NCBI GenBank assembly: GCA_964016885.1
Contig: OZ024742.1
Coordinates: 112,406,001-112,470,000 of the forward strand
Length of the DNA: 64,000 bases
Source: Eledone cirrhosa
Lineage: Eukaryota
Reading direction: 5' to 3'
Of the stretch, positions 6,726 through 55,518 are shown piece after piece. Within the stretch, counting starts at the first letter, position 1, and every line of letters starts with the position of its first letter. The translations under genes and the position numbers were made by a program. A model generated the notes under the pieces. That model was not told the DNA's origin. It saw only the letters and a list, made by a program, of their open reading frames with translations, and did not search any database.

Positions 6726-7021
6726 TTATATGCATTTAAAAAAAGAAAAAGTCGTTTTCAAACGATGGTTACAGTATAGAGAACGTTCAATTTTGCTGTT
6801 CAAAAGTTTGTTTACCGACGTTAAAATGCAGTATATCTCTAAATTGCATAACTTGCAGAATCGATGATTTTGCTGATATGCAGGCGCAGCTGCAATAATT
6901 TGCCAATCAAGGGAGAACGCTTGATTGTTCCTCCGAAGCTGCCAGGCTTTATCGGCGAGGGTTGTTACGGAGCGCATTTTCTCGTGCCTGATCGAAGATC
7001 GATGTTTGTATAGGCGAGCCA
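6726..7021 (-). pseudogene. Penelope-like GIY-YIG endonuclease C-terminal fragment (5' truncated)
   Basis: [34 protein letters not shown]...CNH matches the C-terminus encoded at 28946-29362. Confidence 0.85.
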
Positions 7022-9050: not shown

Positions 9051-9553
9051 AGTGTGTGTGTGTTTATATATGCATGTGTGTATGTGCTTGGCTGCTGTAT
9101 CGATATAACTGTGTATATGAGTTTGTGTTCGTGTGACACCGCATAAATATGCGAACACATACAATTCGGTTGTCTGACGCGTCTGCAAACCAGAAAAAAT
9201 GAACTGAAATTAAAAATATATATTAATAAAATAAAGCTAATAACATTAACTGGGTTTACAGAAGTGACACATATATTGAATACTATTTAAATATATCTCG
9301 ATTGGAAAAGAGAAAAAAAGGGGAAATCCTATTCAATTAAATTATCATTACAGTCACATTGGGATGTAATTATTCTCGACGCCATTTAGTTCTCGGTTAT
9401 TTTAAGTCACCAGATATATACACATATATTTTCTTTTATAACTTCTTTCACAAAGTACACGTATATGTGAAAAAAAACGAGTATAACAAGAATAATCCAA
9501 ATAAGGAGAGGAATAGGCATGCCTCTTTATATATATATATGTGTGTGTGCATT

Positions 9554-9644
<91 letters not shown>

Positions 9645-9649
<5 letters not shown>

Positions 9650-10437
9650 GAAGAGAGAAGAAATATTTAGATATAATTAGTAATAAAATGTATCATACCT
9701 AAACTGCTCCTAGATTCCTCGACTACGTAGTTTCGTGGCATAAACAAAAACAATACATCATAAAGATATAGAGTCCTTGCGCGGTCTGCCGACTTATCAA
9801 GAGGATACCTCATTTTACTAGTCTCTGGAACGCGTCTACACGACGTGAGAAAGAATCCCAAAAGGCGGAGGGGGAGATAGTCACGCGATTTAACGGTCGA
9901 GAAACAGAGCTAAGCCTCTTATAACCCCGAAGAAAATACCACGGAGGCGGAGGGGGTATTTATATCGAAGCCGTAGAAGAGGTAGTGAAGGGGGCGAGAA
10001 GTATGAGTAATGGAAGCCTTTCAGCAGTCCTCACACTTCAAAGGTTGCTCGACCAGAGGGAGTTATTAACAATATATTTAGAAACACACAGATACATGTG
10101 GACACACACATATACATGAATGCATCCGCACCCAACCACGAGTTAAGGGTGCAAACTTCACCGATGTTGCTCAATGAATGACTGGGACAGACCAATCCGG
10201 TTGAACTAGACTGAACAGTTTAGGTATAATACATTTTATTACTAATTATATCTAAATGTTTCTTCTCTCTTCATAATGTATTTTTAACTCTGATACTGGT
10301 TCAGTCTAGTTCAACCGGATTAGTCTGTCCCAGTCATTCATTGAGCAACATCGGTGAAGTTGGCACCCTTAACTCGCGGTTGGGTGCGGATGCATTCATG
10401 TATATGTGTGTGTCCGCATGTATCTGTGTGTTTCTAA

Positions 10438-10445
<8 letters not shown>
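9645..10445 (-). mobile_element. 595-bp HHR-bearing non-coding element, permuted copy plus inverted partial copy
   Basis: Same segments as 35793-36430 in rotated order; 10218-10445 is inverted; (TA)n on both sides. Confidence 0.85.
9717..9804 (-). ncRNA. Type I hammerhead ribozyme, U3-A8 covariant core
   Basis: cctc-TTGATAA-gt.c.ggca..tgccac-GAAA-ctacgtag-TC-gagg; palindromic stem III; GUC site. Confidence 0.8.
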
Positions 10446-10485
<40 letters not shown>

Positions 10486-23125: not shown

Positions 23126-23423
23126 CATAGGTACACATATATATATATATATATATATATAAATATTTCATCGTATAAACGATGTATATATATATATATA
23201 TTTCGTTTGTGAATTTGTTTAGCAAGATTCTTTATCTGAAATCGTGTGTTGAAACCGATATTGTTATACTTTGGGAGGGGCATGTTGCCAATAAGAAACA
23301 CAAGCACCAGTTGCTTTCACTTCAATTTATTATATATTTATAAATTTATAAATTTACAAATCTACAAATTTTTAATTTTCTGGTTGGTTGGTTGGTTCCA
23401 CAACCAGATAGTTGTTTATATAT

Positions 23424-23468
23424 AGTCATAGTCCTTTCGTCACACACTTTGTGACCTCTTCAGTGACT
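23424..23468 (-). ncRNA. Minimal type I hammerhead ribozyme in pseudo-LTR
   Basis: agtca-CTGAAGA-g.gtcac..gtgac-GAAA-ggac-TA-tgact. Confidence 0.85.
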
Positions 23469-23671
23469 GGGGATTCCTTCTTTGTTTCTGTGTCTTTCCT
23501 TTCTTCTGTCCTACGCCATTTTGTTTCTGTGTGTGTGTTGTGTGCTCAGTTTGCGCATGCGCCACAACCGGGTGTCTGTGTGTGTTTGTGTTCATTTATC
23601 TATTTGTTTATTTATTTACATGTTGCTGGTTGGTTGTTTGTTCTATGTGTGTGTGTGTTTTCATTTTGTCC

Positions 23672-26600
23672 TTAATTGTAAGTTGTGATGTTGCTGTTCC
23701 ACTCATATTTTCTATTTAATTTTGGTTGTAATTCTTTTATGTTTACTGCCTCTGTAATTTGTCTAAACATTGCATCTTTTCTATGTGTAGATTCTATTTT
23801 TATTTCTATGTTCTCTAATTTACCCTTGTGTTCTATCTTAGCATGTTCGTAGAGTACAGATGATTCTTTATTATCTTGAAGGTCTCGCCAGTGTTCATTT
23901 ATCCGTTCCGCTATACTACGAGCTGTCTCACCTATGTACACTATATTTTTGTTTCTACATTGTCCTTCAGTACATCTTATGCTATACACTACATTTCTAG
24001 TTTTACAGTTAATATGGGGGCTCGTTTTACAGGTTATACATTTCTTATCTATATATGAGGGTCTTGGGAACGGGTATGTTTTGCTAATAAGTTTTTTTAC
24101 GGAGGTACCTGGTCTTTCTACTATCTTAATATTGAGTTTATGTTTATTTAGGGCCCTTCTAAATGTGTAGGCTAGTTCGCCTCTAGGGGTTGTATTGATG
24201 AACATTACACTCTGGTATTTATTGCTATCATACCATGAGTTTATTCTATTGGCCTTGTTCCTCGTTCTTTCTATTCTATTCCAAAATTTGCTCCTATACA
24301 AGGGGCAGGTCCCATTTATGTCATTATTTACCATTTTTTCCCATTTGGTTCTGGCTCCTCTATACACTCTGATTCTATCTCTCTGATTGTAGCCAGAGAA
24401 CTGCATACGGTGGATGAAGTGTTGTATGTGTCTCTCTAGTTCTTCGGGGTTGCACATGCGGGACACATTTCTCATCACCCGTACCAAATCCGCAATCAGT
24501 ATGTTGATTTTGGTATGGTCCGAAATGGCCGAGTTTCGGTGGCTCAGATGTTTGGAAGTCATGGGTTTGGCATAATGGGAATGGAGGATTTGTTTTTAGT
24601 TGTTAATGGTATCTAACCAGAGCTCTGTGTCTAGTACAGGTAATCGATGGTTGGGGTGTCTACTTGGGTAGTCTATAGTAACTCTAATGCTCTGGTGGAT
24701 TGAGTTTGCTATTTGCTGGATGCTTTCCATTGTGTTTTTCTCTAGTTCCTGACTGTTCTCTAGTGGGGGTGTCTTAACTACAATGTTTATATCATCTACG
24801 TAGCGGGAGTACATTATCAGGTTTAAGCTGTCTTCTAATTGTTCTTTAAGTTTAAGTTTAAGTCTACTGTCCCACCATACCATGAATAAGTTAGCTATGT
24901 CGCCTGCAATGCTAACACCAATGGCTGCTCCTTCCTCTTGGGCATATGTTTTTCCATTAAATTTGAACATATGTTCCTTAAGGGTTAATTTTATGCTGGC
25001 CCCTACCGCATGTGCAATATTTTTCTTCAGTTCATTGTGGTTTTCGGGTGTCCGTATGGCTCTGGTCCACCCGTTCCATCTATCTGTGTGGGTTTTCTTT
25101 GCCATTGAGGTAATGGTAGGTGGTCTGCCTCTTGCTGGTCTTGTAGGGCACAGGTTGCTAAGGTCATAAGTGTCTAGGTAACTATTACTATGGGTAAGCT
25201 TAAGTAGAAGTCCCAGCTCACTGGTATCAATCCCACGGAACTCAACCTTGCTCTCACTGATCATTTCTACGCATTTCTCCACAGCAAAATCCACGTCAAT
25301 AGATGGATACAGGGACACAACATCCATACTGCCTATTATGCTGTTTGTTAGGTCCCCAGATCGGTTACTCACGCCGATTCTGCTGAGGAGGTCCTCCGTG
25401 CTGTCACACATCTGGGGACATCTCAATGATGGGGCGTATGATCAGGGAGAGGAAGTAGGACAGTCTGTAGTTACTAGCAATGTTAGCTCCACAGACTGGC
25501 CGTGTTGGTGGTCCCGCGACAGGGTCACAACCCGTTTTATGGTCTTTTCGAAGCCCATACAACGCCGGCACGTCATTGTTTCAGGCCTGGAAGTTGTTGG
25601 CAGTCCTTTTGTTGGGCTGCATTATATTCGACCACATCGCCATATGGGCATTGAGGGCTTTTTCTCTATCCTCATGCTCCTGTGGTGTTACCTCTCTTGT
25701 GTTAGTGATGTGGGGTTGCATTTCCTGGATGTAGTTTGGCAGGCTGTCAACCGACATTCTGCTGGAAAGCATGCTATCTCTCCATTACGTGAGCGCTGCA
25801 TGAGCTTAGGCAAGCCATTTGCAGATTTTTCTCCCAGTTGCTGGGCCTCTATTCTATTATGCTTCTTGCTATACTGTTCTATAATATTTCTAAGTTCGGA
25901 TCTAGCTATACTAAATTGTACTTATGTTTGTTCATCGACCTGCGACGGCAACTGCGTGCGTTTGTTAAATGGTAAAGTCGTGGCGTGGACTCGTCGCAGG
26001 TCGAATGATTTATCGGAGGGATTATAAAACGGAGAGTTCCAGGCTAGTGCTATTGTTATTGTTAGTTGTGTTGTTTCTATTTCTATTTCCACCAACAGTC
26101 TCATGGTTGTTTCTATGTCTCTCATAATTACTCCTGTCTCTTTCCACTGGCTCAATGTTGTTATCTACCCTATTTTGTGTGTCTGTGTGTTCGTCTTGGT
26201 TATTCTCTTTGTCCTTAGTCTCCCTTCTCCTTTTCCTTTTAATCCTATTACTTTCCCTTATTTCTGTGATTTCTGTGCTACTGTCATTACTTGTTTTCTG
26301 TGTCTGTGTGTTTGTTAAGATTGTGGTGGTGGTGAGAGGCATTGAATGCGTGTGTGTTGTTGTTGTTGATGTGTGCTGTTGTTGATGTGTGTTGTTGTTG
26401 TCTCCGTGTGTGTTATCGTTGTCGTGTGTGTTGTTATTGTTGTTTGTGTCTGCGTGTCTGTCGTTGTTGTTTCTGGGTATGTTGCTATTGTTGTTGTTGT
26501 TGATGTGTGTGTTGTTGTTATTGTTGTTTGTGTCTGCGTGTCTGTTGTTGTTGGGATGTGTGTTGTATATGTGTGTGCGTATATTGTTGCTTTTGTTTTT

Positions 26601-27353
26601 GATGCTCCAGCGTAGGTTTGTAAATGATTTTTCTATTTCTGACAGACAACTAATCATATTTACCTTCTTGAATGTCGCAAATTTCGGCGGCAAACATAAC
26701 ACAGACATTTAATTCATTATCTATTTTTGCGTTCCCATATATGTTGGTGTTTTTGTTGTTGTTGAACTCTTCTGATAATGAGGTGTCGGCCATGTTGATA
26801 CCGTCAATTTTGTCGTGATATCTATTGGTATACTCTATAGTATCCTGATTTAGCTTTGCCTGTTTAAGCCACTTTAGTTTCCTGTTAAAGTGCCTATCAC
26901 ATTCTTAAGTAATGTACTGTTCTTCAGGGCGTATAAGGCTTATAAATATTAGTTTCTCTCTTGGTGTGGTGATCCTACCTATTCTTGTATTAGGTTACGC
27001 TTTTGTTTTTCTTGATGACTTAATTCTCTATGGATATTCTTTTTTATGTTTAGAATTAATGTTCGTTTTAGCCTATCTGCTTGTTTTTTGGTGAGTTGTA
27101 ATCTTCCAACGTCGGTATTGATGGTGTTGGTCTAGATTCTGGAGGAGGCACACTGCTTTATGAAGTATAGTTGCCGAGATGTTATGGTTTTTCGTAGACA
27201 ACAGAACATGGTGGTTTTCAGTATCTTGTTAGCCTGGCTAAGGCTTACGATATTTCGTTTCTGAATTTGTTTAGCAAGATTCTTTATCTGAAATCGGGTG
27301 TTGAAACCGATATTGTTATACTTTGGGAGGGTCATGTTGCCAATAAGAAACAC
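23672..27353 (-). pseudogene. Penelope-like RT plus GIY-YIG polyprotein, interrupted
   Basis: IGSMDVVSLYPSID, QEEGAAIGVSIAGDIANLFM, YSRYVDDI (24596-25426); NVVYSIRC..YIGETARSIAERINEH (23672-24562); split over several ORFs. Confidence 0.93.
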
Positions 27354-27970
27354 ACGTACCAGTTGCTTTCACTTCAATTTATTATATATTTATAAATTTA
27401 TAAATTTACAAATCTACACCAATGGCTGCTCCTTCCTCTTGGGCATATGTTTTTTCATTAAATTTGAACATATATTCCTTAAAGGTTAATTTTAAGCTGG
27501 CCCCTACCGCATGTGCAATAATTTTCTTCAGTTCATCGTGGTTTTCGGGTGTCCGTATGGCTCTGGTCCACCCGTTCCATCTATCTGTGTGGGTTTTCTT
27601 GGCCATTGAGGTAATGGTAGGTGGTCTGCTTCTTGCTGGTCTTGTAGGGCACAGGTTGCTAAGGTCATAAGTGTCTAGGTAACTATTACTATGGGTAAGC
27701 TTAAGTAGAAGTCCCAGCTCACTGGTATCAATCCCACGGAACAGCAACATCACAACTTACAATTAAGGACAAAATGAAAACACACACACACATAGAACAA
27801 ACAACCAACCAACAACATGTAAATAAATAAACAAATAGATAAATGAACACAAACACACACAGACACCCGGATGTGGCGCATGCGCAAACTGAGCACACAA
27901 CACACACACAGAAACACAATGGCGTAGGACAGAAGAAAGGAAAGGCAAAGAAACAAAGAAAGGAATCCCC

Positions 27971-28015
27971 AGTCACTGAAGAGGTCACAGAGTGTGTGAC
28001 GAAAGGACTATGACT
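27971..28015 (+). ncRNA. Minimal type I hammerhead ribozyme (inverted pseudo-LTR copy)
   Basis: agtca-CTGAAGA-g.gtcac.agagtgt.gtgac-GAAA-ggac-TA-tgact. Confidence 0.85.
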
Positions 28016-28186
28016 ATATATAAACAACTATCTGGTTGTGGAACCAAGCAACCAACCAGAAATTTAAAAATTTGTAGATTTGTAAATTTATAAATTTATA
28101 AATATATAATACATTGAAGTGAAAGCATCTGGTGCGTGTGTTTCTTATTGGCAACATGACCCTCCCAAAGTATAACAATATATATA

Positions 28187-28313
<127 letters not shown>

Positions 28314-28589: not shown

Positions 28590-29713
28590 TTTAAAGATTA
28601 AAATACAAATAGGCCTCGATAAGGATAAATATATATCAAATAAATAAGAAGCGTCGAGCAAATATTTATTAAAATAACAGATTAAAGTTTAAGCAAATAA
28701 TCGCTGTTTTTACCCTTAACGGCTTCTTCTGAAACTAACAAGGTCAATCTGTAAACGCAGATGTGGATATTTCAAAAATGTTGCAACCGGAGGAAGACAG
28801 GAAGACGAAACTTTGATTCGTTGAAACGTTCCCTTAACAAAACATACAGGTAATATATACTTACCTATGCAAATAAGTAATGGTATAAACATAACATATA
28901 CCTAGCTACCACATCAATACGTAAAATATCCACGTATAGATCGTACTATCCGTTAGGGTATAATGTGGGGCTGTAATACAGGAAAGTGTTGCGCAATTTA
29001 TGTTTACAAGCCGAAAATGCCTCAGATTTTTGGCTTAAGATTTGTTCTGTAGCGTAGAGTATTTCCAGGGCTTCAGCGGCGCAGAGGTCACATGGACTTT
29101 TATTTCCGTTATACGATCTAGCCCTGGCTAGGATCTCCCTGTGTAATTTATATTGGGTGTTTTCGTCTTTTAGACTCCAGATATAAGCTGCAAGTGACGT
29201 CATATTCCTTCTTAGAGGGTAACGAAAAGAATGGGTATGCATGTAAAGATGCTGCTTGAATCTATTGGCGGTTAACCCTATGTAGGCCCTACGGGACTTG
29301 GGTGTTTCAACGTTACATTTGTAGACCATGTTACTAGAGAGGCATTTCCCGGATAGGGGCAATCAACCCGATTCCTACAATTACAGTTAGTACTAACTAC
29401 AGGGTTGCATGTGTTCCTACGGCCAGGTAGTTTAGCTAAATTTGAAGCTGTGATGTTATGTGCAAGGTTAGGAGTCGTAGAGTAAGACATTTTAAAAGTA
29501 TTTCTATTAAAAATGTTACTATATTTATGGGTAGGGGCAAAATGCTTCGTAATAAGGTCTAGAAAGATCTTAGGTAATGGTGTGGTCACCCCAATATTAT
29601 ATGGTGGGTTATACCATATAATGCGATGGGATCTATTTCTTCTAGGTCTATTCTCGTACTCTATATATGCTACCTTATCCATAAATCCACTTCGAGCAAG
29701 AGCTTCATTGTAA
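28590..29713 (-). mobile_element. 5'-truncated Penelope-like element (probably Naiad-type), left member of a head-to-head pair
   Basis: IIWYNPPY, NRNTFKMSYS, CNCRN..CP, VYKC..YIGLT, CDLC..E, SACKH; degenerate HHR at 28686-28736. Confidence 0.92.
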
Positions 29714-31176
29714 CCTTCTGCGGAAGGTACTGATCTTATCGGCCTTTTCTTTCTTTTCTCTATCAAGGACGAATTCCCCAACGCGGGCGGTAGTTTTTAC
29801 CGTGATGATGGTTTTGATCATGACTATGTGCGGACCTCGTGCTTGCGACAGGTTCAGAAAAGAACTCACAGCCTTCTTTAAAGGATTCAACCTCTCTATA
29901 CAGGTTGAAACCAAGCTTTCGGTCGTTAATTACCTCGACGTTAGCCTCAATTTATCGAATGGCTTGTATTACCCGTATAGAAAGCCGAATGATACGCTTA
30001 ATTACATAAGTAAGCATTCCAACCATCCTGCCAGCATAACCAAGAACCTGGTAAGGAACGTTTCGTTGAGGGTTTCCCGTCTATCTACTAACGAGCATAT
30101 TTTCAACGACCATTCCACTTATTACAATGAAGCTCTTGCTCGAAGTGGATTTGTCGATGAGGTAGCATATACAGAGTACGAGAATAGACCTAGAAGAAAT
30201 AGATCCCGCCGCATTATATGGTATAACCCACCATATAATATGGAGGTGGCCACACTATTAGCTATGATCTTTCTATCCCTTATTACGAAGCATTTTCCCC
30301 CTACACATAAATATAGTGAACTCCTTAATAGAAATACTATTAAAATGTCTTACTCTATGACTCCTAACCTTGCACATAACATCACAGCTTCAAATTTAGC
30401 TAAACTACCTAGCCGTAGGAACAGGTGCAACCCTGTAGTTCATACTAACTGTAATTGTAGGAATCTGGTTGATTGTCCCCTTACCGGGAAAGGCCTCTCT
30501 AGTAACAGTGTCTACAAATGTAAGGTTGAAACACCCACGTCCCGTAGGGCCTACATAGGGTTAACCGCCAATAGATTCAAGCAGCGTCTTTACATGCATA
30601 CCCATTCTTTTCGTTACCCTCTAAGAAGGAATATGACGTCACTTTCAGCTTATATATAGAGTCTAAAAGACAACCACACCCAATATAAGTTACACTGAGA
30701 GATCCTAGCCAGGGCTAGATCGTATAACGGAAATAAATGACAAATGTTAGCTCTGCACCGCTGAGGCCCTGGAAATACGCTACGCCACAGACCACATTTT
30801 AAACAAAAATCTGAGGCAATTTCGGCTTGTAAACATAAATTGCACAAAACTTTCCTGTATTACAGACCCACATTATACCCTTACGGATAGCACGATCTAT
30901 ACGTGGATTTTTTACGTCTTGATGTGGTAGCTAAGTATATGTTATGTTTATACCATTACTTATTTGCATATGTAAGTATATATTACTGGTATCTTTTGTG
31001 AAGGGAACGTTTCCACGAACCAAAGTTTCGTCATCCTGTCTTCCTCCGGTTGCAAAGTTTTTTTAAATATCCACTTCAACGTTTACAGTTTGACTTTGCT
31101 AGTTTCAGAAGATCCCGTTAAGGGTGAAAGCAACGATTCTTTGCTTAAACTTTAATCTGTTATTTTAATAAATACA
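29714..31176 (+). mobile_element. 5'-truncated Penelope-like element (probably Naiad-type), right member
   Basis: SAEGTDLIGLF, YRDD followed by a frameshift, ORF 29802-30659 (thumb plus GIY-YIG), later stops, pseudo-LTR to 31176. Confidence 0.93.
31101..31151 (+). ncRNA. Type I hammerhead ribozyme, A4 core variant
   Basis: agttt-CAGAAGA-t.ccc.gttaa.ggg.t-GAAA-gcaa.cgattct.ttgc-TT-aaact; CAGAAGA in all three copies. Confidence 0.72.
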
Positions 31177-32692: not shown

Positions 32693-32759
32693 TTTTATCT
32701 GATGAAAACACAAATATTATTGCATGATGATGTTTGTTTTTGAAATGCGCATAATAAAA
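32693..32759 (+). ncRNA. Type I hammerhead ribozyme
   Basis: ttttat-CTGATGA-aaa.ca.caaata..tgtttg.ttttt-GAAA-tgcgca-TA-ataaaa; palindromic stem III. Confidence 0.8.
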
Positions 32760-34992: not shown

Positions 34993-35359
34993 TGCCCCAA
35001 TTATACTAATATTGATAATCTAACCAACATCAGTATTTAGCGATAATCATCATCAGTGCCTGAGGTATCTGTCAGGTTGCCAGTCCAGCAGTTCTAAAGA
35101 AATGCTCAAACTGATTCAAAAATGAGGAAGTAAATTACCGCCAAAAAAAACAATACATGCGCATCACAATGTATTCTAAAGGGAATTCAGGCCACGTGCT
35201 AGAACTCAATTGGAAATTGAAAAAATATCTATGTGTGAACAACATTTGATGACATACACAGATATTTTCTCATATATGCATATATATATACATATATATT
35301 TACACACACACACACACATATATATATACATATATATATACATACATACATATATATAC

Positions 35360-35422
<63 letters not shown>

Positions 35423-35462
35423 TATGTGTGTATACGTACATACATATATGTATGTGTACCTG

Positions 35463-35540
<78 letters not shown>

Positions 35541-35680
35541 TGCTACTGTACGTCTGTATACATATATGTATATACGTATACACACATACTTACATTTAAG
35601 TAAGTGCCGTACTAAGAGTGAGAAATGAAATTTCGTTTTCATTTTATATATATATATATATAAATATATATGTGTGTGTG

Positions 35681-36430
<750 letters not shown>

Positions 36431-43250: not shown

Positions 43251-44849
43251 GACACACAGGCACACATATGTGTCTGTATGTGTGCGTATATATGTGTGTA
43301 TGTGTGTTTGTCTAGTTGTGCATAAATTCATATATATACCCACACATATATCTATATATATTATTGAGAAAATATAACGAATTTATAACACATCGACAAT
43401 AGTGATATATATTATTTTAACGCTTTAGTGTGCAATGGACGATTCCCAACATTTCGGGCGCTACTCGTTCAGCTGAAGATGAATGAGAATGAAATGAAGA
43501 AACAGAAAGAGAATGAGAAGAGTAAGAAACGGGAAAAAATTAGTGTTGGGAAAAAAACTCCTGTGCGGTCATGAAACAATTTTGGTAGTCTTATAATAGA
43601 AATAGAAATTCATTTCAATTGACTTTCACATTACAAGAGATAATGCTAATGTAGCAAACTAATGATACTATTTTAAAATATATTTTCTTTGCTTCCACTT
43701 ATCTCTATATCATTATGTTTGTCCTTTTTCATGAACACCAACTAAACCTTTCCAATATTCTCTCCGTCTCTCTAGATTTTAGTAGTATCAAACATCTTCA
43801 TGTATAATTTATTGATATTGTGAGGAAAAATATGCAAAAAGTGAAACAAAAATTATCAAAATAATTCATGACATGAAAACGATTACATAAATATTCTTCT
43901 ATGGAATCACTTTTATTTTTCTTATAATCTAATTATCTTAGCAGAATATACAGAAATATGAAAAGTCACGTGATCATGGATTTATTTGTATAAATAACGA
44001 CACTGCTTGAATTCATTGTCTATCATTGAACTGCACAAAATGAAAAAAAAAGGAATCAGTCGTTTTTTTTTGTCATATTTTACTTCAAATACTTTTTCAT
44101 ATTACACATTTTTCTAAATATACGCATCTCAGCCAGAACAAAATCAGTTATACAAAGCTTCTAAAGTAGCATTTTGTCGTGATATTTTCACTATTCTTTA
44201 AATATTTCAAATATATATATAATTAGGCAGATGAATATTTTAGACTCCACATCATTAATTTGCACATGTGAATCATATGGGTTGGATTAAAATCATACTA
44301 TATTAGATTCTCATCTCATTATGGCACACAGTGAGAACGAAACCAACGATGACGTGCGTTTAGCATAAGTATTAGTTCTTTAACATATTCAGTAAATATT
44401 ATATCAGAACCCTAGCAAGTAACATTGCAATACATAGATCAGTGTTAAATGCTAACAATTCCAGGCTGTTGTTAAACTGAGCTAACACTATTTCACGTTT
44501 GTTTAGAAGGAAATAATTTCATTTTTTATAAGACTGATGAAATATTCATAAAGGTATTCTCTGCTCATAAGACCTTGAGCAACTGACCACTGAATCCGTG
44601 CTCTGTATTTATTTCTTGAACAGTAATTAAAACTAATTAACACAATTCAAATGACTATGATGGTTATTTGTATCAAGCTATATCTCGAGTGAACTATATT
44701 TATTTCATGGCAGGTTGGATCTTCAGAACGAAGTTGCTGTAGTATTGACGCTAATAAATTACGGGATGGAATGGACAAAGAAGAGGTGAACTTTTTTATT
44801 AGTTAAGGCCATTGAAAATCTGAGCAGAAATAAAAACGTAAATAAATGG

Positions 44850-45690
44850 AAAGGGTAAACATTTGTATTAACATTTTTAGAATCTCGTTTATACATGTTA
44901 ATCTTATTAGGATTATAATTCAAATTATTATACATATATTCTATATTATTTTTATAACCTGCCTTTCGTAGCGCGTCATTATAATATCCTGATTTTTCAT
45001 CAAATATTGATTTATTAGCGTATATTCTAGTTATGCGTTTCTGTACACTATTGACTATTGCGTTTTTCACAGATTTAGGGTAATTAGAGTAATCGCTAAC
45101 GTAGCTTAAGTTTTCATTGGGCTTATGGATAGGGTAATAAACATCTGAGTTTAAGTTAAGGGTAACGTCGAGGAAATTAACTATTTTGGTACTATTTTCA
45201 ACTTCTAATTTAACGTCGTAATTTTTAATGAATTCAATTATAGTTTTCTTAACCCTATTTAGTTCTGTATTGCTATGTTTGACAACCGTAAATAAAATAT
45301 CGTACCTATATAAAGCACCGGTAATCTCCGGTAGTTTTCTATTTACCATATTTAAGATGAGAATCCCCAGAAGATCCGTGACCTTCGCTGAGTCCGATGA
45401 TCCCATGGTAATGTCAAAGTTTCTATTCCTATCTGAACGGGTCCAATATATATATTGTTGAAATTAATTAGAGTTCTTCTAGCAGTTAATATGATATCGA
45501 TTTCATCCCTAGTTAGATCAGTATGTTTGTAAGCATAAGATAAAGCCTGATTTAATAGGTTAGGTGTAATAGAAAAATAATAGCTTACTATGTCCGTTTG
45601 GATGAATTTGTGATATTTCTTATTTTCTATATTTTTAAACCAATCAATCACTTCATTAGTGTCCTTCCATAAGCTCAATTTAGACTTCAA
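44850..45690 (-). pseudogene. Penelope-like RT fragment, frameshifted
   Basis: LWKDTNEVIDWF, FIQTDIVSYY.SI, MGSSDSAKVTDLLG, LYRYD (decayed YRDD), VNFLDVTLNL. Confidence 0.92.
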
Positions 45691-47109: not shown

Positions 47110-47508
47110 TATATTAATAAGAGGAATTCCAACTTTGTCTGATTTACTCGTTTTATTTCCAATCCTTTAAAATATATATAATATGGTATTATATTGAAAT
47201 AGTATGATAGAATATTAAATTCTAAGTGTTAATTGAACAAGTACTTTCATGCTTTCGCAATCTTCAGGTTCATGATATGTGGTGACAGTCGAGTTTGCAA
47301 TTTTCAACTGTTGAAAATTGCAAACTCGACTGTCACCACATATCATGAACCTGAAGATTGCGAAAGCATGAAAGTACTTGTTCAATTAACACTTAGAATT
47401 TAATATTCTATCATACTATTTCATTATAATATCATATTATATATATTTTAAAGGATTGTAAATAAAACGAGTAAATCAGACAAAGTTGGAATTCCTCTTA
47501 TTAATATA
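47110..47508. repeat. Near-perfect palindrome: 199-bp arms, 1-nt centre (47309), HHR in each arm
   Basis: gcaattttcaac-t-gttgaaaattgc at the centre; symmetric to both ends with few mismatches. Confidence 0.95.
47346..47384 (+). ncRNA. Minimal type I hammerhead ribozyme (mirror copy 47234-47272, minus)
   Basis: tgaac-CTGAAGA-t.tgc.gaaa.gca.t-GAAA-gtac-TT-gttca; AGTACT palindrome. Confidence 0.88.
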
Positions 47509-50014: not shown

Positions 50015-53000
50015 ATAAGACGGCGGTAACTACGGTGGAGTAAATTAGTTGAATTTGTATGAGTTATCGAAAGTTCTATATAATATTCTTTAAATCGGTG
50101 TGTAGGAAAAGGACCCCTCTGTCAAAGGAGGTTGTTTTTTTAACTGTATCTCGCCCCCATGAGAGCTAAATTTGCATTTATTTACAATCATAACACCAAC
50201 ATTTTGTTTTAGAAAAACATGGCGGACAAAAGAAATTGTCCACAGGGAGGAACAGCAAGTTCCTTGGAGCGTGGAACAGCAATTTCCACCTAATCATAAG
50301 GCAACGTAAAAAAACAAGAGAGACAACAGCGACAGCGACGGTGGTAGTTACAACAGCAGCAGCTACTGGAACAGTAGTAGCAGAAGTGGAAATTACAACG
50401 AAAACGTCCATGCGTTAGAAAAATCAAACAACACCACCACCACCACGACCCCAATAACAACAATAACAACAGCAGTAGCCATAAAGAACCGAAAGAACAA
50501 CAACTATAACAGCAGCAAAACAGACGGGGAAAAACAATAACGACGGCAACAAAGATAAAAATAGTGATGAGTCGACACAAATCAAATCAAACACATCTTT
50601 TGATAAAGCGACAAACAATTTTGAACAAGTACACATCACTAACGAAGAGATAAAAGAAGCAGAGGTCTTGGTTAAAAAAACCGGACACAGGGTATGTCTC
50701 ACCCGCCCTGCTGAGATAATGAGAAACAAGCTTTTGTATTCGGTCAGTTATCGTTCGATCGGATCAAAATCGCGGCAAGTTGAACGGGCAAAAGAGTCAC
50801 AGATCCAAAGAGCTATGGGCACCGTCTGGGAACAGAAAACATATATAGACCGGGGATAGATATATGGCACTGTGGAGTGCTCTTCGCTACACCAGAAGAA
50901 GCCAGAGCATACTCCATTGCGCAACTCCGCAGTGACGAAATCCTAATGATCCCCACATACTGCGGCCAGAGAGTCGTCAGGATTCGAGTGGGCCAAGTTC
51001 CGGCCTCAGTGGAGAAGGCGTGGTTGACCGCGGCCGTCCTCGCTGACGTTGAGGATTCAACAACCATACTCAACGTCATTCGAATAAGACAGGAGAATTG
51101 GACAGGTTCGGGGATCGAGCTAATCATCCAAACAAACCATGAGAGCATTGAGGCCATCCCCGATTTAATGGACCTGGACGACAGCAGACACGTGACTGTC
51201 GAAGGTAGGCGCCCAAGGTGTCATGGATGCATTCTGCCCCAATGTTACCAAAACAGCCAAGCGCCCATCCATTCTCCCCACGCCGTGCCCCGCAACTGGA
51301 GCGGACAAACAAACAAAGACCACAGTGGCAGAAGAGAAATTACCATCCCAAACAACAAAATCACCATATGTTCTACCACCCACGGAGCCAATGCAAAGCA
51401 TACCACTTCCTGATATAGCTAAATCGGACAAAGAGTGCAATAAGGCCGAAGAGTGGAGGACTATTATACAAACAATAGGAATAACTCCCTACCCTCAACC
51501 CCCACAAAAGAGGAAGAAAGAAACCTAAAAAAAAAGAAAATTAAAACTAGCCCACCTCCTCCCCACCATCAACAGCCACCCCCGCACAACCAACTAAACC
51601 ATCACCACCACCACCAACAACAACACCACTACCAACACCGCCACCACCACCACCACCGCCATCCTTAGCATCTAACCCATCGTCACCTCCAACAACACCA
51701 CAGCAAACACAGAAAGCACCAACACACCAACAGCAGACACAATACACAGCCATAGACACAGACAACACAAAGGTTTTAAATTACATTCAACACCACACCA
51801 ACATCACAGAAACAAAGTACGTTCAAACCACCAAAATTGCAACCGATACCTCACACACACATGAAAATAATAAAAATTACACAAACAAATTACATAACAT
51901 TAAAAACAATGTTCCCCACATCAATTGGAGACTACCGAGGGAACATCACCAAAAGAATATTCACGAACATTCTCGTGGAGAAACCCACCAATGATTGGAG
52001 GGATGGAGCACCCACACCCTTCCTAAAGAAGAGCTACAGGTAATTTGTTGTACCTCTCCCCTCTCACTTGTTTTCCTCCTCTCCTAGCCAACATGGCTTC
52101 TTTCAGAATAGGTAGCATAAATGTACGTGGCCTGGGGTCGTCTTGGAATCAGGGCCACCTGCTGAACGATCTCAGGTCGCTAAACATAGGGTAAGTTGGT
52201 GGTACAAGACGTGACCAGCAGAGAAGGACAAGCTTCCAGGCTAGTGGCCCCCTGTGCCCCGACAGGAGCAGGAGAGCCTGAATTCTTCCGGCGTCTGGAG
52301 ACTTTTCTTGGAACGTCCCGCTCTCTAGTGTTAGTGGGCGACTGGAACGGGTTCTTAGATGCACGCTGGGTTTGTGCGAGATTAGCGGATAGAAGAGGAG
52401 GGTGCAAACCTGCTCAGACAGTTTCAACTGTCTGACAGGTACCGTCTTGATTTCCAGAATGTGCCAATGTGGACATGGACAAAGCGCGTCGGGTCATCCA
52501 GATCATATCTAGATAGGGTATTTTGTAGAGAAATAGATAGGTCTAGCATAGGCTGTCCACATTTCAAAATATTCGACTACACGGACCAAAAATTCGTAAT
52601 CTGTGAGCTTGACTTAGATAGTCTTCATAGACAGAGACCCGGCTACTGGAAGCTAAACGCGTCTTTAACTGCGCGCAAGGCCTACAGAGACCGGATTAGC
52701 GAACTAGTTAAGTGAGCGTTGACGGGGAACATCAACAACAAATGGTGGTTTCGTCTGAAAAGAGCGATTAGAATAGAGTCCATTAGGTTTCGTAAGGCTT
52801 TATCAATTGAGAAAAATAGAGCAGGGGGAGAATTAGTTAGAACATTAGACAAGAATTTAGTTAGAAAATTAGACACGACCGACGTACTTGAGGCGAGATT
52901 GGCTCTTGACCAAATCTTCAATGCAAATGACGAAGGCTGCGTGTTCAGAGCTAGGGTGCGTGCTCTCAGACATGAGGGAACGAAGCCGTTCAATGGGCCC

Positions 53001-55518
53001 GAGTGGCGGAGGCGCGTTGTGGCAACAAAGCCACGATCCGGTCTTTGGTGGACAACGACGGGCGCATGCTACACAATTCACTCAGCTGTTCGGGGGCAGC
53101 GGTGGGCCGGATCGAGGGATGCACTCTAGTGCCTACCTCGAAGGACTGCCGCGGCTCTCGGCCACTGAGGCGGAATGTTGCGAAAAGCCGATGACAGCCG
53201 CTGAAGTACGGGAGGTAATGACTGGTTGCAGAAGGGGTAAATCGCCTGGTTTGGATGGTCTGCACTATGAACTTTACTCACAGATGCCAGACCTGTTCGG
53301 AGGCCTCTTGGCGGACGTCTACTGCATCTGGCAACAGAACGGGAGAATGTTCAACTCTGTGAGCCGAGGAGCGGTGGCGCTGCTGAGAAAGGATCCGAAC
53401 AAGGGGGTTAACATATATAATTTCAGGCTAAACACAGAGTTCAAGACTTTGGCCAAGGTGCTAGCAAAGAGGTTGATTCTTGTTGTCGGTAGTCTGGTGG
53501 GAGAGCTGCAGACATCCACCATTCCAGACAGATCCATCCACAACAACCTTCACCTCATGCGATACATAGTGGAGAGGGTAGCTAGGGAACCTGGCACGGG
53601 TGGGTCCTTGACGAATTTAGATCAGTCGAAAGCTTTCGATAGGGGCGACCATCGTTATGTGGCGGCAGTCATGAGGGCGGCTGGCTTTGGGCCCGTTTTC
53701 AGAGGCTGGACCGTTGCCATGCACAGCGATATCTTCTCTGTGGTGAGAGTGGACGGTCACCTTTCGGAACCGTTCAAAATTTTGTGTTCGGTCCGCCAAG
53801 GATGTCCCCTCTCATCCCTCTTGTACGAGCCATTACTGCACAAAATAGAGAGTTTGAGGGTGTCGCGCGCGAACTAGGAGGCGGAAGATCCGTTTCAGCA
53901 TATGCAGACGATATCACGTAGTGGTATCGAACGCCAAACACATCGAGGCGATCGGCACTACACTAAGAGAATACGAAGCGGTGACAGGAGCAATGATCAA
54001 CCAGGAAAAGACGGTGGGCCTGCAGCTCAGCACCTGGAGAGGCAGGTCCATGCCGTCCAACAGCGTCGTCGGGCGCTGGACGGACGGACCGGTTAAATTG
54101 CTAGGGGTCTGGTTCGGCCCGGACCTCCGAACAGACAAACACTGGGACGAGGTGACGAGTAGGGTGGCTTCTCTCACCCAGAAATGGGCAGAGAGGAAGC
54201 TATCCCTGAAAGGTCGACCGTAGGTGGCTAACGCGTACATCGCGTCCGTCATCTAATACCGCCTGACCGTCGTACCTTCACCTAAACCTCGCCTGACTGC
54301 GCTGGAGCGTTTGCTCTTTCGCTTTTTGTGGAAGGGACGCGCTCCGATGGTCAGGCGGTCCATCTGCTGTCAACACCTGCTACGTGGAGGGCTGGGCATG
54401 CCATGGCAGATGATGCTCCGTCACGCGCTCAGGCTATGACATCTCCACCTCATCCTCGACGGTGATCAGGTGTGATCGCCGCTTGCTAGACACGTGTTTC
54501 CCCAGCTCGTTTCATTGAAGGAGCTGCAGCCCTGGGTCAATCGAAGACCGAGAGGGAGCGCTTGGAGACTGTAATGTCTTCAGGCGCTCACAGCCCTCGA
54601 CCAGTCGGGCTATGTGATCCGTGGAAACTCCAATCTCGCGTTCTATAGAGGATTAGTGGAGGGGAAGAGCGACGACGTACTTGGGGAAACGCTAGGCGTC
54701 GACGAAAATCAACTAGCCAATCTCTTCGGAAGAACTTTCGGGCCGGGGCCTATGGACACTTTCCAGAATTCCCTGATCTGGCAGTGCTACCGAGGAGCTT
54801 TGTCAGTTCGGGATAAACTCTACAGACATGGAAGTGCCGTCAGCCGGGTATGTGCGACATGCGCGCAGAGCGACGAAACCGTCCTGCACGCACTCGTCCA
54901 GTGTGCGAGCATTGCTGACTTGCGGGTTTATGTCGAACATCTGCTGTCGCGTGTAGAACGGATGCGACTATCAGCTGAGTCGATCGTGAGGATTGCCCCT
55001 CCCCGCTCTCACTTTAGCCGGGAAAGACAGGCAGTTATTATCTGTCTGGTGACCATGGCGAAATAGATAGTATGGTGGACGCGTCTGAAAGGGCTTTAAG
55101 ACGTGCACCTACCTCTTCAATTATGCCCTGATTAACCTTTTTCAAATTTCACTTGAAAAGGAAAATCAGGGTAGACAGGAAAGTGCTCTCTTCCCAGTAT
55201 TTTTTTGAAAGATGGGTGAGAGAGGCAAGAATGGCTGTAAATTGAAGGTGGAAAACTGGGAGAGGGCACTTTCCCTGGTGGTCAGGGTCACCGTGTTTTT
55301 TTAATTGGTCTTCCCCACGATGGCCCTCGGAAGTCTTGCCCGTATTGTGAAATTTTTCATCGTTTCTTTTTTGTTACATCGTCTGTTTTTTGGGGTTTTT
55401 TTACATGCAGAAATGCCCATTTGTACCGTCCTGTATTGTACTATATTGTCCTATACTGTCCTTAATGTTTTACTACGTGTAAACCCTTGTGGTTACTAAA
55501 TAAATCATTATTATTATA

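Follow-up and report, generated by a model that had tools for sequence, protein, structure and literature searches.

Two fixed, paired insertion ends in a 595-bp hammerhead repeat of Eledone cirrhosa, a probable non-autonomous Penelope-type retrozyme

What kind of element is a 595-bp repeat that carries a hammerhead ribozyme motif with TTGATAA in place of CTGATGA in its core, and how is it inserted into the genome? The question is raised by a 64,000-nucleotide stretch of the Eledone cirrhosa genome (contig OZ024742.1, positions 112,406,001 to 112,470,000; hereafter the window), which contains two copies of the repeat. The initial annotation treated them as permuted copies of one unit and took their shared U3–A8 pair as a compensatory swap from C3–G8. 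In the reading favoured here, with a probability of about 0.72, the repeat is a non-autonomous Penelope-type retrozyme, with an RNA predicted to cleave itself and probably reverse-transcribed into (AT)n tracts by a Penelope enzyme supplied in trans. The U3–A8 core is the ordinary part of this picture, and the pairing of two fixed insertion ends, as counted below, is the interesting one.

Copy 1 had been described as a permuted monomer, but it consists of two arms placed head to head between (AT)n tracts. Arm B (9641..10216, minus strand, 576 bp) crosses the unit junction and has its 3′ end at unit position 162 (site B), adjoining (AT)n, and the inverted arm A (10213..10445, plus strand, 233 bp), which is without the hammerhead core, has its 3′ end at unit position 1 (site A), again adjoining (AT)n; the target microsatellite occupies 9528..9646 on the left and 10438..10482 on the right. 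Copy 2 (35793..36412, minus strand) is a 5′-truncated, non-inverted insertion of one 595-bp unit (35793–36387) and about 25 bp of the next, with its 3′ end at site A adjoining an (AT)n-rich target tract (35272..35795). The roughly 161–167 nt between site B (35954) and site A (about 35793) of this copy (35793..35954, minus strand) are referred to as the tail. The supposed permutation reduces to a B/A inversion in copy 1 and an A-ended 5′ truncation in copy 2, and the unit length of 595 bp holds for copy 2, other copies measuring about 590–597 bp. The unit is non-coding, its longest ATG-started frame having 76 codons, and the repeat is present in thousands of copies in the genome.

In both window copies, the hammerhead lies on the minus strand in type I layout, with the TTGATAA core at 9800 and 36113, and stem I (TCCTC/GAGGA), the GAAA box, a palindromic stem III and the GTC cleavage triplet are common to the two. 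The motif of copy 1 (9716..9805, minus strand), assigned from sequence layout with the fold taken from its sister copy, has stem I at 9805–9801 with 9720–9716, the core U3-U4-G5-A6-U7-A8-A9 at 9800–9794, followed by the long stem II, GAAA and stem III, and a predicted cut between 9721 and 9720. That of copy 2 (36029..36118, minus strand), assigned from layout and fold, has its core at 36113–36107 and a predicted cut between 36034 and 36033. Core boxes, a Watson–Crick 3–8 pair (U3–A8), GAAA and an NUH triplet (GUC) are all present, as in a type I hammerhead. The stem II region measures about 60 nt in both copies, and its apparent loop is predicted to be a long hairpin extending stem II. A gap-free alignment of 459 bp holds 24 differences between the copies, 4 of them inside the hammerhead and all 4 in the stem II extension. 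Rfam hammerhead models at their gathering thresholds gave no match in the whole window, and the scan at that score also missed canonical-core minimal hammerheads within it. Two more hammerhead-like motifs with canonical cores lie at 32695 (plus strand) and 41704 (minus strand).

Over 8 copies, 97 % of cells in the three stems, with stem I open, were paired, compared with 30–56 % in slid controls, with no excess over a shuffle control. In the stem II extension 98 % of cells stayed paired through one-sided changes, again not above the shuffle control, and no two-sided compensatory change relative to the commonest pair was found in the stems of the family (shuffle control not beaten, 373/500), in a test based on 8 hand-picked copies, 2 of which cover the motif only partly. 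The whole 595-nt unit folds far more stably than its shuffles (z=−6.6), which counts for the Penelope-type retrozyme reading, and the hammerhead region alone (106 nt) folds no better than shuffles (z=−0.5). Counted against that reading are the minimum-energy fold of the whole unit, in which the hammerhead is not formed, and the hammerhead-constrained fold (−22.1 kcal/mol), which is less stable than the local optimum by 1.1 kcal/mol. The 10 nt of stem III form a perfect palindrome that gives no hairpin alone but pairs as a duplex at −12.9 kcal/mol, which matches the dimer design described for Penelope hammerheads in the available parts of PMC4209133 and PMC6765202. Just upstream of stem I, an invariant GAGG within 36114–36125 (minus strand) can pair with the same CCTC that the downstream arm engages, and this possible alternative fold would inactivate the ribozyme.

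The distribution of the U3–A8 core was tabulated over the 3.0-Gb genome, in which a DNA search for the repeat returned 136 matches from the best 38 of 1508 candidate places, comprising dispersed copies, 595-bp tandem arrays and inversions. A pattern with positions 3 and 8 left open matched 6371 times (control 1), and a CTGATGA majority was not found: U3–A8 occurs in 6343 matches and C3–G8 in none, with U3 and a base other than A8 in 15 and a base other than U3, always with A8, in 13. Among the first 100 of 7191 matches listed in a further search for a C3–G8 relative, 99 have U3–A8 and 1 has U3–G8, and three sequencing runs of unrecorded kind matched to the unit listed no variant at the core positions. 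None of the 13 non-U3 matches, which share the stem I context, is a C3–G8 relative of the family, and no such relative combining this stem III with a short stem II was found. It follows that the swap predates the family; the U3–A8 pair proposed by the initial annotation is real, and the proposed step from C3–G8 is not seen within the 595-bp family itself. The uniformity of U3–A8 among young copies shows descent only, not selection.

The U3–A8 core is also not new, being an already published variant known from phage and from Schistosoma Penelope elements. Natural U3–A8 hammerheads were reported in the 2011 survey of Perreault et al. and, in the available text, called active in vitro on the basis of earlier work (PMC3088659), and in 2014 about 1,300 hits of the variant were described in the Cercyon Penelope elements of Schistosoma mansoni (PMC4209133, available parts). 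Within the present genome, counts of short-stem-II hammerheads, which are repeat copies and not independent events, gave 14489 C3–G8 (control 70), 6849 U3–A8 (control 412), 613 C3–A8 (control 158) and 460 U3–G8 (control 158). About half of the 100 C3–A8 matches listed belong to one repeat with only two stem II pairs, and many of the remaining listed matches are single mutants of matched-pair families. The U3–A8 class spans several families of different sequence with covarying stem II pairs, including a 316-bp tandem family (C1:6519951-6521556, loci L123–L128, with relatives L129–L138) that has a covarying 4-bp stem II and is inverted in (AT)n. A different architecture is seen at loci L199 and L200, where stem III of a U3–A8 motif is 14 nt long and is not directly followed by an obvious GUC.

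Selected activity had initially been argued from the two window copies, which cannot bear that argument, since at 5.2 % divergence zero changes in 33 positions have a chance of about 0.17 by hand calculation and two 95 %-identical copies therefore cannot show selection. Support comes instead from the genome counts and from a second subfamily of about 75 % identity, represented by 13 of 68 distinct full-length units. Between the column majority of this subfamily and copy 2, none of the 33 core and stem positions differs, compared with 141 of the 562 remaining ones (Fisher p=1.8e-4). The longest two stretches without change, 29 and 23 nt in length, correspond to the halves of the hammerhead; in the stem II extension, differences occur at 16 of 55 positions. 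Bins of intermediate divergence (2 and 6 units) are not significant alone. As the core and stems are invariant while other positions differ by 25 %, the hammerhead motif is, on sequence comparison, under selection, and catalysis is its predicted function. Upstream of the hammerhead, the unit also contains two copies of a conserved C-rich block (36165–36280) and other invariant runs of 15–22 nt, which are possibly promoter or protein-binding elements.

Insertion ends were mapped for 54 insertions taken in order along contig C1 and for 37 more that had been picked for their similarity or for a core mutation. When the strand with the hammerhead is taken as sense, the 3′ ends occur at two unit positions, 1 (A) and 162 (B), each AT-rich with (AT)n beyond it, and the 5′ ends are spread over the unit. 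The copies had been thought to start at different points of the same 595-bp unit; mapping replaces arbitrary points by two fixed 3′ ends, which rule out random circular permutation. In the ordered set, the 27 non-inverted insertions end at A (13), at B (12) or elsewhere (2), and the 27 inverted ones comprise 24 A/B, 1 B/B and 2 with one unassignable end, so that 24 of 25 assignable inversions are A/B (p=1.5e-6 against 0.5), or 23 of 24 independent ones, as L056 and L058 are neighbouring duplicates. The 22 inverted insertions of the selected second set include 20 A/B, 1 A/A and 1 B/B, which brings all assignable inversions to 44 A/B out of 47 (p=2e-10 against 0.5, one locus pair being a local duplicate). 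The 75 %-identical subfamily, with ends classified by alignment, uses the same two ends, 167 nt apart; its 29 loci, a query-biased set, include 16 A/B, 2 A/A, 3 inverted with a damaged end and 8 not inverted. No accumulation of 5′ stops is seen around the predicted cut, 3 of 137 lying within 5 nt of it. This result, which is counted against the Penelope-type retrozyme reading, indicates that a cleaved linear monomer is not the template and that cleavage is without a direct trace in the genome. The accessible parts of the metazoan retrozyme literature gave no account of paired fixed ends, and the openly licensed literature none of the 595-bp family or of two-site twin priming in Penelope elements, although the family, or further U3–A8 assay data, may be in print.

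The arms of inverted insertions bear on the template from which they were copied. In 35 of 37 testable insertions (3 of 40 having too little overlap), the paired arms are more similar to one another than to the median arm of other insertions, and the 12 units over both arms of one inverted array differ by 0–2 bases, compared with up to 17, with a median of about 6, between loci. Such similarity could also stem from gene conversion, which is counted against the Penelope-type retrozyme reading, and in some older insertions, copy 1 included, the arms are 2–5 % apart. One monomer sequence read repeatedly, either a circle or a homogeneous tandem RNA, would be the simplest template, and the circular or tandem RNA initially proposed is still likely from the arrays of near-identical units, not from the different start points. 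One arm is nested in the other in 24 of 41 inverted insertions; in the remaining 17, copy 1 among them, neither contains the other, so that two separate cDNA syntheses are needed and simple fold-back copying fails. In a sequencing run of unrecorded kind under another organism code (X4), the unit formed one self-closing contig, which was rejected as evidence for an RNA circle because a tandem array in DNA gives the same result.

In its structure, the repeat resembles non-LTR retrozymes, being composed of tandem non-coding units, each with a type I hammerhead, in arrays of up to about 9 units per arm, and equally non-autonomous Penelope-like elements, with tandem and inverted insertions in simple repeats and a tail at one end. 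It is not an autonomous Penelope-like element, as the units are flanked by (AT)n and hold no long ORF (no reverse transcriptase and GIY-YIG between pseudo-LTRs). Penelope-like elements occur in the same genome, and in the window RT-like and endonuclease-like frames have a hammerhead behind them. The broken element at 23300–28200, which we take to be Penelope-like from familiar motifs, has both kinds of frame, a weak RVT_1 match and hammerheads at 23467 (minus strand) and 27972 (plus strand), and belongs to a very abundant family, of which at least 138 close relatives were scored, many with long open frames. The element is bounded in (AT)n by an inverted pair of a long and a short end, about 60 nt apart, a layout counted for the Penelope-type reading of the 595-bp repeat. 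By such motifs, 29685–30659 (plus strand) and 29278–29796, 44759–45463 and 6726–6900 (all minus strand) presumably hold other Penelope-like ORF fragments; Pfam gave no match on 29685–30656. Searches that were not exhaustive found no autonomous partner with sequence in common with the unit; apart from simple repeats, the unit resembles none of 50 loci of other families, and no Penelope frame was consistently attached to the repeat among the loci examined.

Other elements were seen alongside. Minimal C3–G8 hammerheads of another family stand head to head at 47271 (minus strand) and 47347 (plus strand), with one long and one short end in (AT)n, and non-LTR retrotransposon-like ORF fragments lie at 50784–53877. 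A much longer array of another retrozyme family, with about 31 head-to-tail 466-bp units and a C3–G8 hammerhead, ends in an inversion at C1:5738331-5752439.

Parallels of mechanism and structure with Penelope elements and animal retrozymes are the reason for which the repeat is filed as a non-autonomous Penelope-type retrozyme. In the available parts of PMC7229834 and bioRxiv 10.64898/2026.07.22.740005, metazoan non-LTR retrozymes are likewise non-coding tandem repeats in thousands of copies, each unit having a single type I hammerhead, with strongly self-paired RNA and co-occurring Penelope-like elements; they are expressed as circles (PMC7229834) and have been argued to derive from Penelope pseudo-LTRs, as non-autonomous Penelope derivatives (bioRxiv 10.64898/2026.07.22.740005). 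The 595-nt unit, known here from genomic DNA, is longer than the expressed circles of 170–400 nt (PMC7229834) but within the 51–972 bp range of the later work (bioRxiv 10.64898/2026.07.22.740005), and differs from these retrozymes in its U3–A8 core and long-hairpin stem II. With the minimal Penelope hammerheads, as far as the available text of PMC4209133 describes them, it shares U3–A8, type I layout, a short stem I, a long stem II, G10.1–C11.1, a palindromic stem III suited to dimers and opposite-orientation copies 100–700 bp apart, whereas its 60-nt stem II region, its 10-nt palindrome, the arrays formed by the unit itself and the fact that no adjacent ORF was found set it apart. The U3–A8 hammerheads of Perreault et al. 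share the core covariation but are not described as retroelement repeats in the available text (PMC3088659).

Insertion structure extends the comparison. Penelope pseudo-LTR insertions (PMC3846280, PMC8557442, PMC11167929) are also tandem and inverted, target simple repeats and have a tail at one end only, which corresponds to the interval between two reverse-transcription start sites; the tail is about 165 nt in the 595-bp family and 30–40 nt in the pseudo-LTR insertions. Where the available parts of PMC3846280 and PMC8557442 describe the tail at one end of inverted pseudo-LTRs qualitatively, the one-of-each rule has been counted here (44/47), and the arms overlap in the template, in some cases over many units. 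In vitro, both strands of AT-rich target DNA are cut and extended by purified Penelope protein, which starts at two internal RNA sites, the interval between which equals the genomic tail (PMC11167929). In the same system, hammerhead mutants were without effect on insertion and the start sites were the same on both strands (PMC11167929), which speaks against the mechanism proposed below, as does the poor in vitro cleavage of minimal Penelope hammerheads reported in the available text of PMC4209133.

In the proposed mechanism, tandem copies would be transcribed on the hammerhead strand, and two hammerheads, pairing via the 10-nt palindromic stem III, would cut once per unit and yield monomers able to circularise, as predicted from the fold and by analogy with published retrozymes. 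A Penelope reverse transcriptase-endonuclease would then nick both strands of an (AT)n tract, a target seen directly at the insertions, the identity of the enzyme being inferred. On one and the same RNA species, priming would begin at site A from one nicked strand and at site B from the other, in keeping with the observed ends, in an order that we infer; each cDNA would run for a variable distance, sometimes over several units, before the two were joined head to head. Survival of only one arm would leave a plain 5′-truncated copy, such as copy 2. A more specific version, coupled two-site twin priming on one circular RNA by a dimeric Penelope enzyme, with A used on one strand, B on the other and both reverse transcriptases rolling round the 595-nt circle, is tentative and given somewhat less than an even chance. 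If true, it would explain the tail at one end, the head-to-head inversion and the tandem arrays in one step, and the Penelope dimer would be functionally asymmetric.

The same class of element could also insert without any circle, if the template were an uncleaved linear read-through of a tandem array and the hammerhead were kept for folding, protein binding or turnover. This account, rather unlikely but the one to be taken most seriously, agrees with the 5′ stops not clustering at the cut site, with unprocessed RNA being the dominant substrate of Penelope protein in vitro (PMC11167929) and with the existence of tandem arrays able to act as sources; however, repeated 5′ truncation would make the arrays ever shorter, and the insertions seen with about 7 + 9 near-identical units would need a circle or repeated template jumping to persist. 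An inverted arm made by self-priming or fold-back on the first cDNA (or from an antisense template), with the second end set by endonuclease resolution at the other site, is improbable: self-priming has been proposed for Penelope inversions (PMC3846280, available parts), and the near-identical arms and the nesting seen in 24 of 41 insertions are expected from it, but the non-nested arms of the other 17, copy 1 included, are not.

Slightly more doubtful still is the view that a successful repeat carries the motif as a relic, inactive or non-catalytic, with U3–A8 uniform through common descent only. Descent does predict the uniformity among young copies, activity is a prediction from sequence and Rfam gives no match; on the other hand, the core and stems show no change between subfamilies with 25 % divergence at other positions, and matched 3–8 pairs are abundant and mismatched ones scarce genome-wide. 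Propagation purely as DNA, as a satellite expanded through unequal exchange or DNA rolling circle, is strongly disfavoured: it would account for head-to-tail arrays of near-identical units, but the dispersal of insertions on many contigs, their polar ends (fixed 3′, variable 5′), the (AT)n targets and the head-to-head inversions fit target-primed reverse transcription.

As a Penelope-type retrozyme, the 595-bp family bears on how Penelope insertions acquire one tailed and one tail-less end around an inversion, and the one-A-one-B end rule likely shows how Penelope-type elements insert both ends. With thousands of young, near-identical insertions and a short unit, the end-pairing rule and the prediction of a single template are directly countable, and the in vitro system already established for Penelope would gain a compact substrate in the short non-coding unit. 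The family also provides abundant natural material for asking whether propagation requires Penelope-type hammerheads, as the motif is conserved while the rest of the unit drifts by 25 %.
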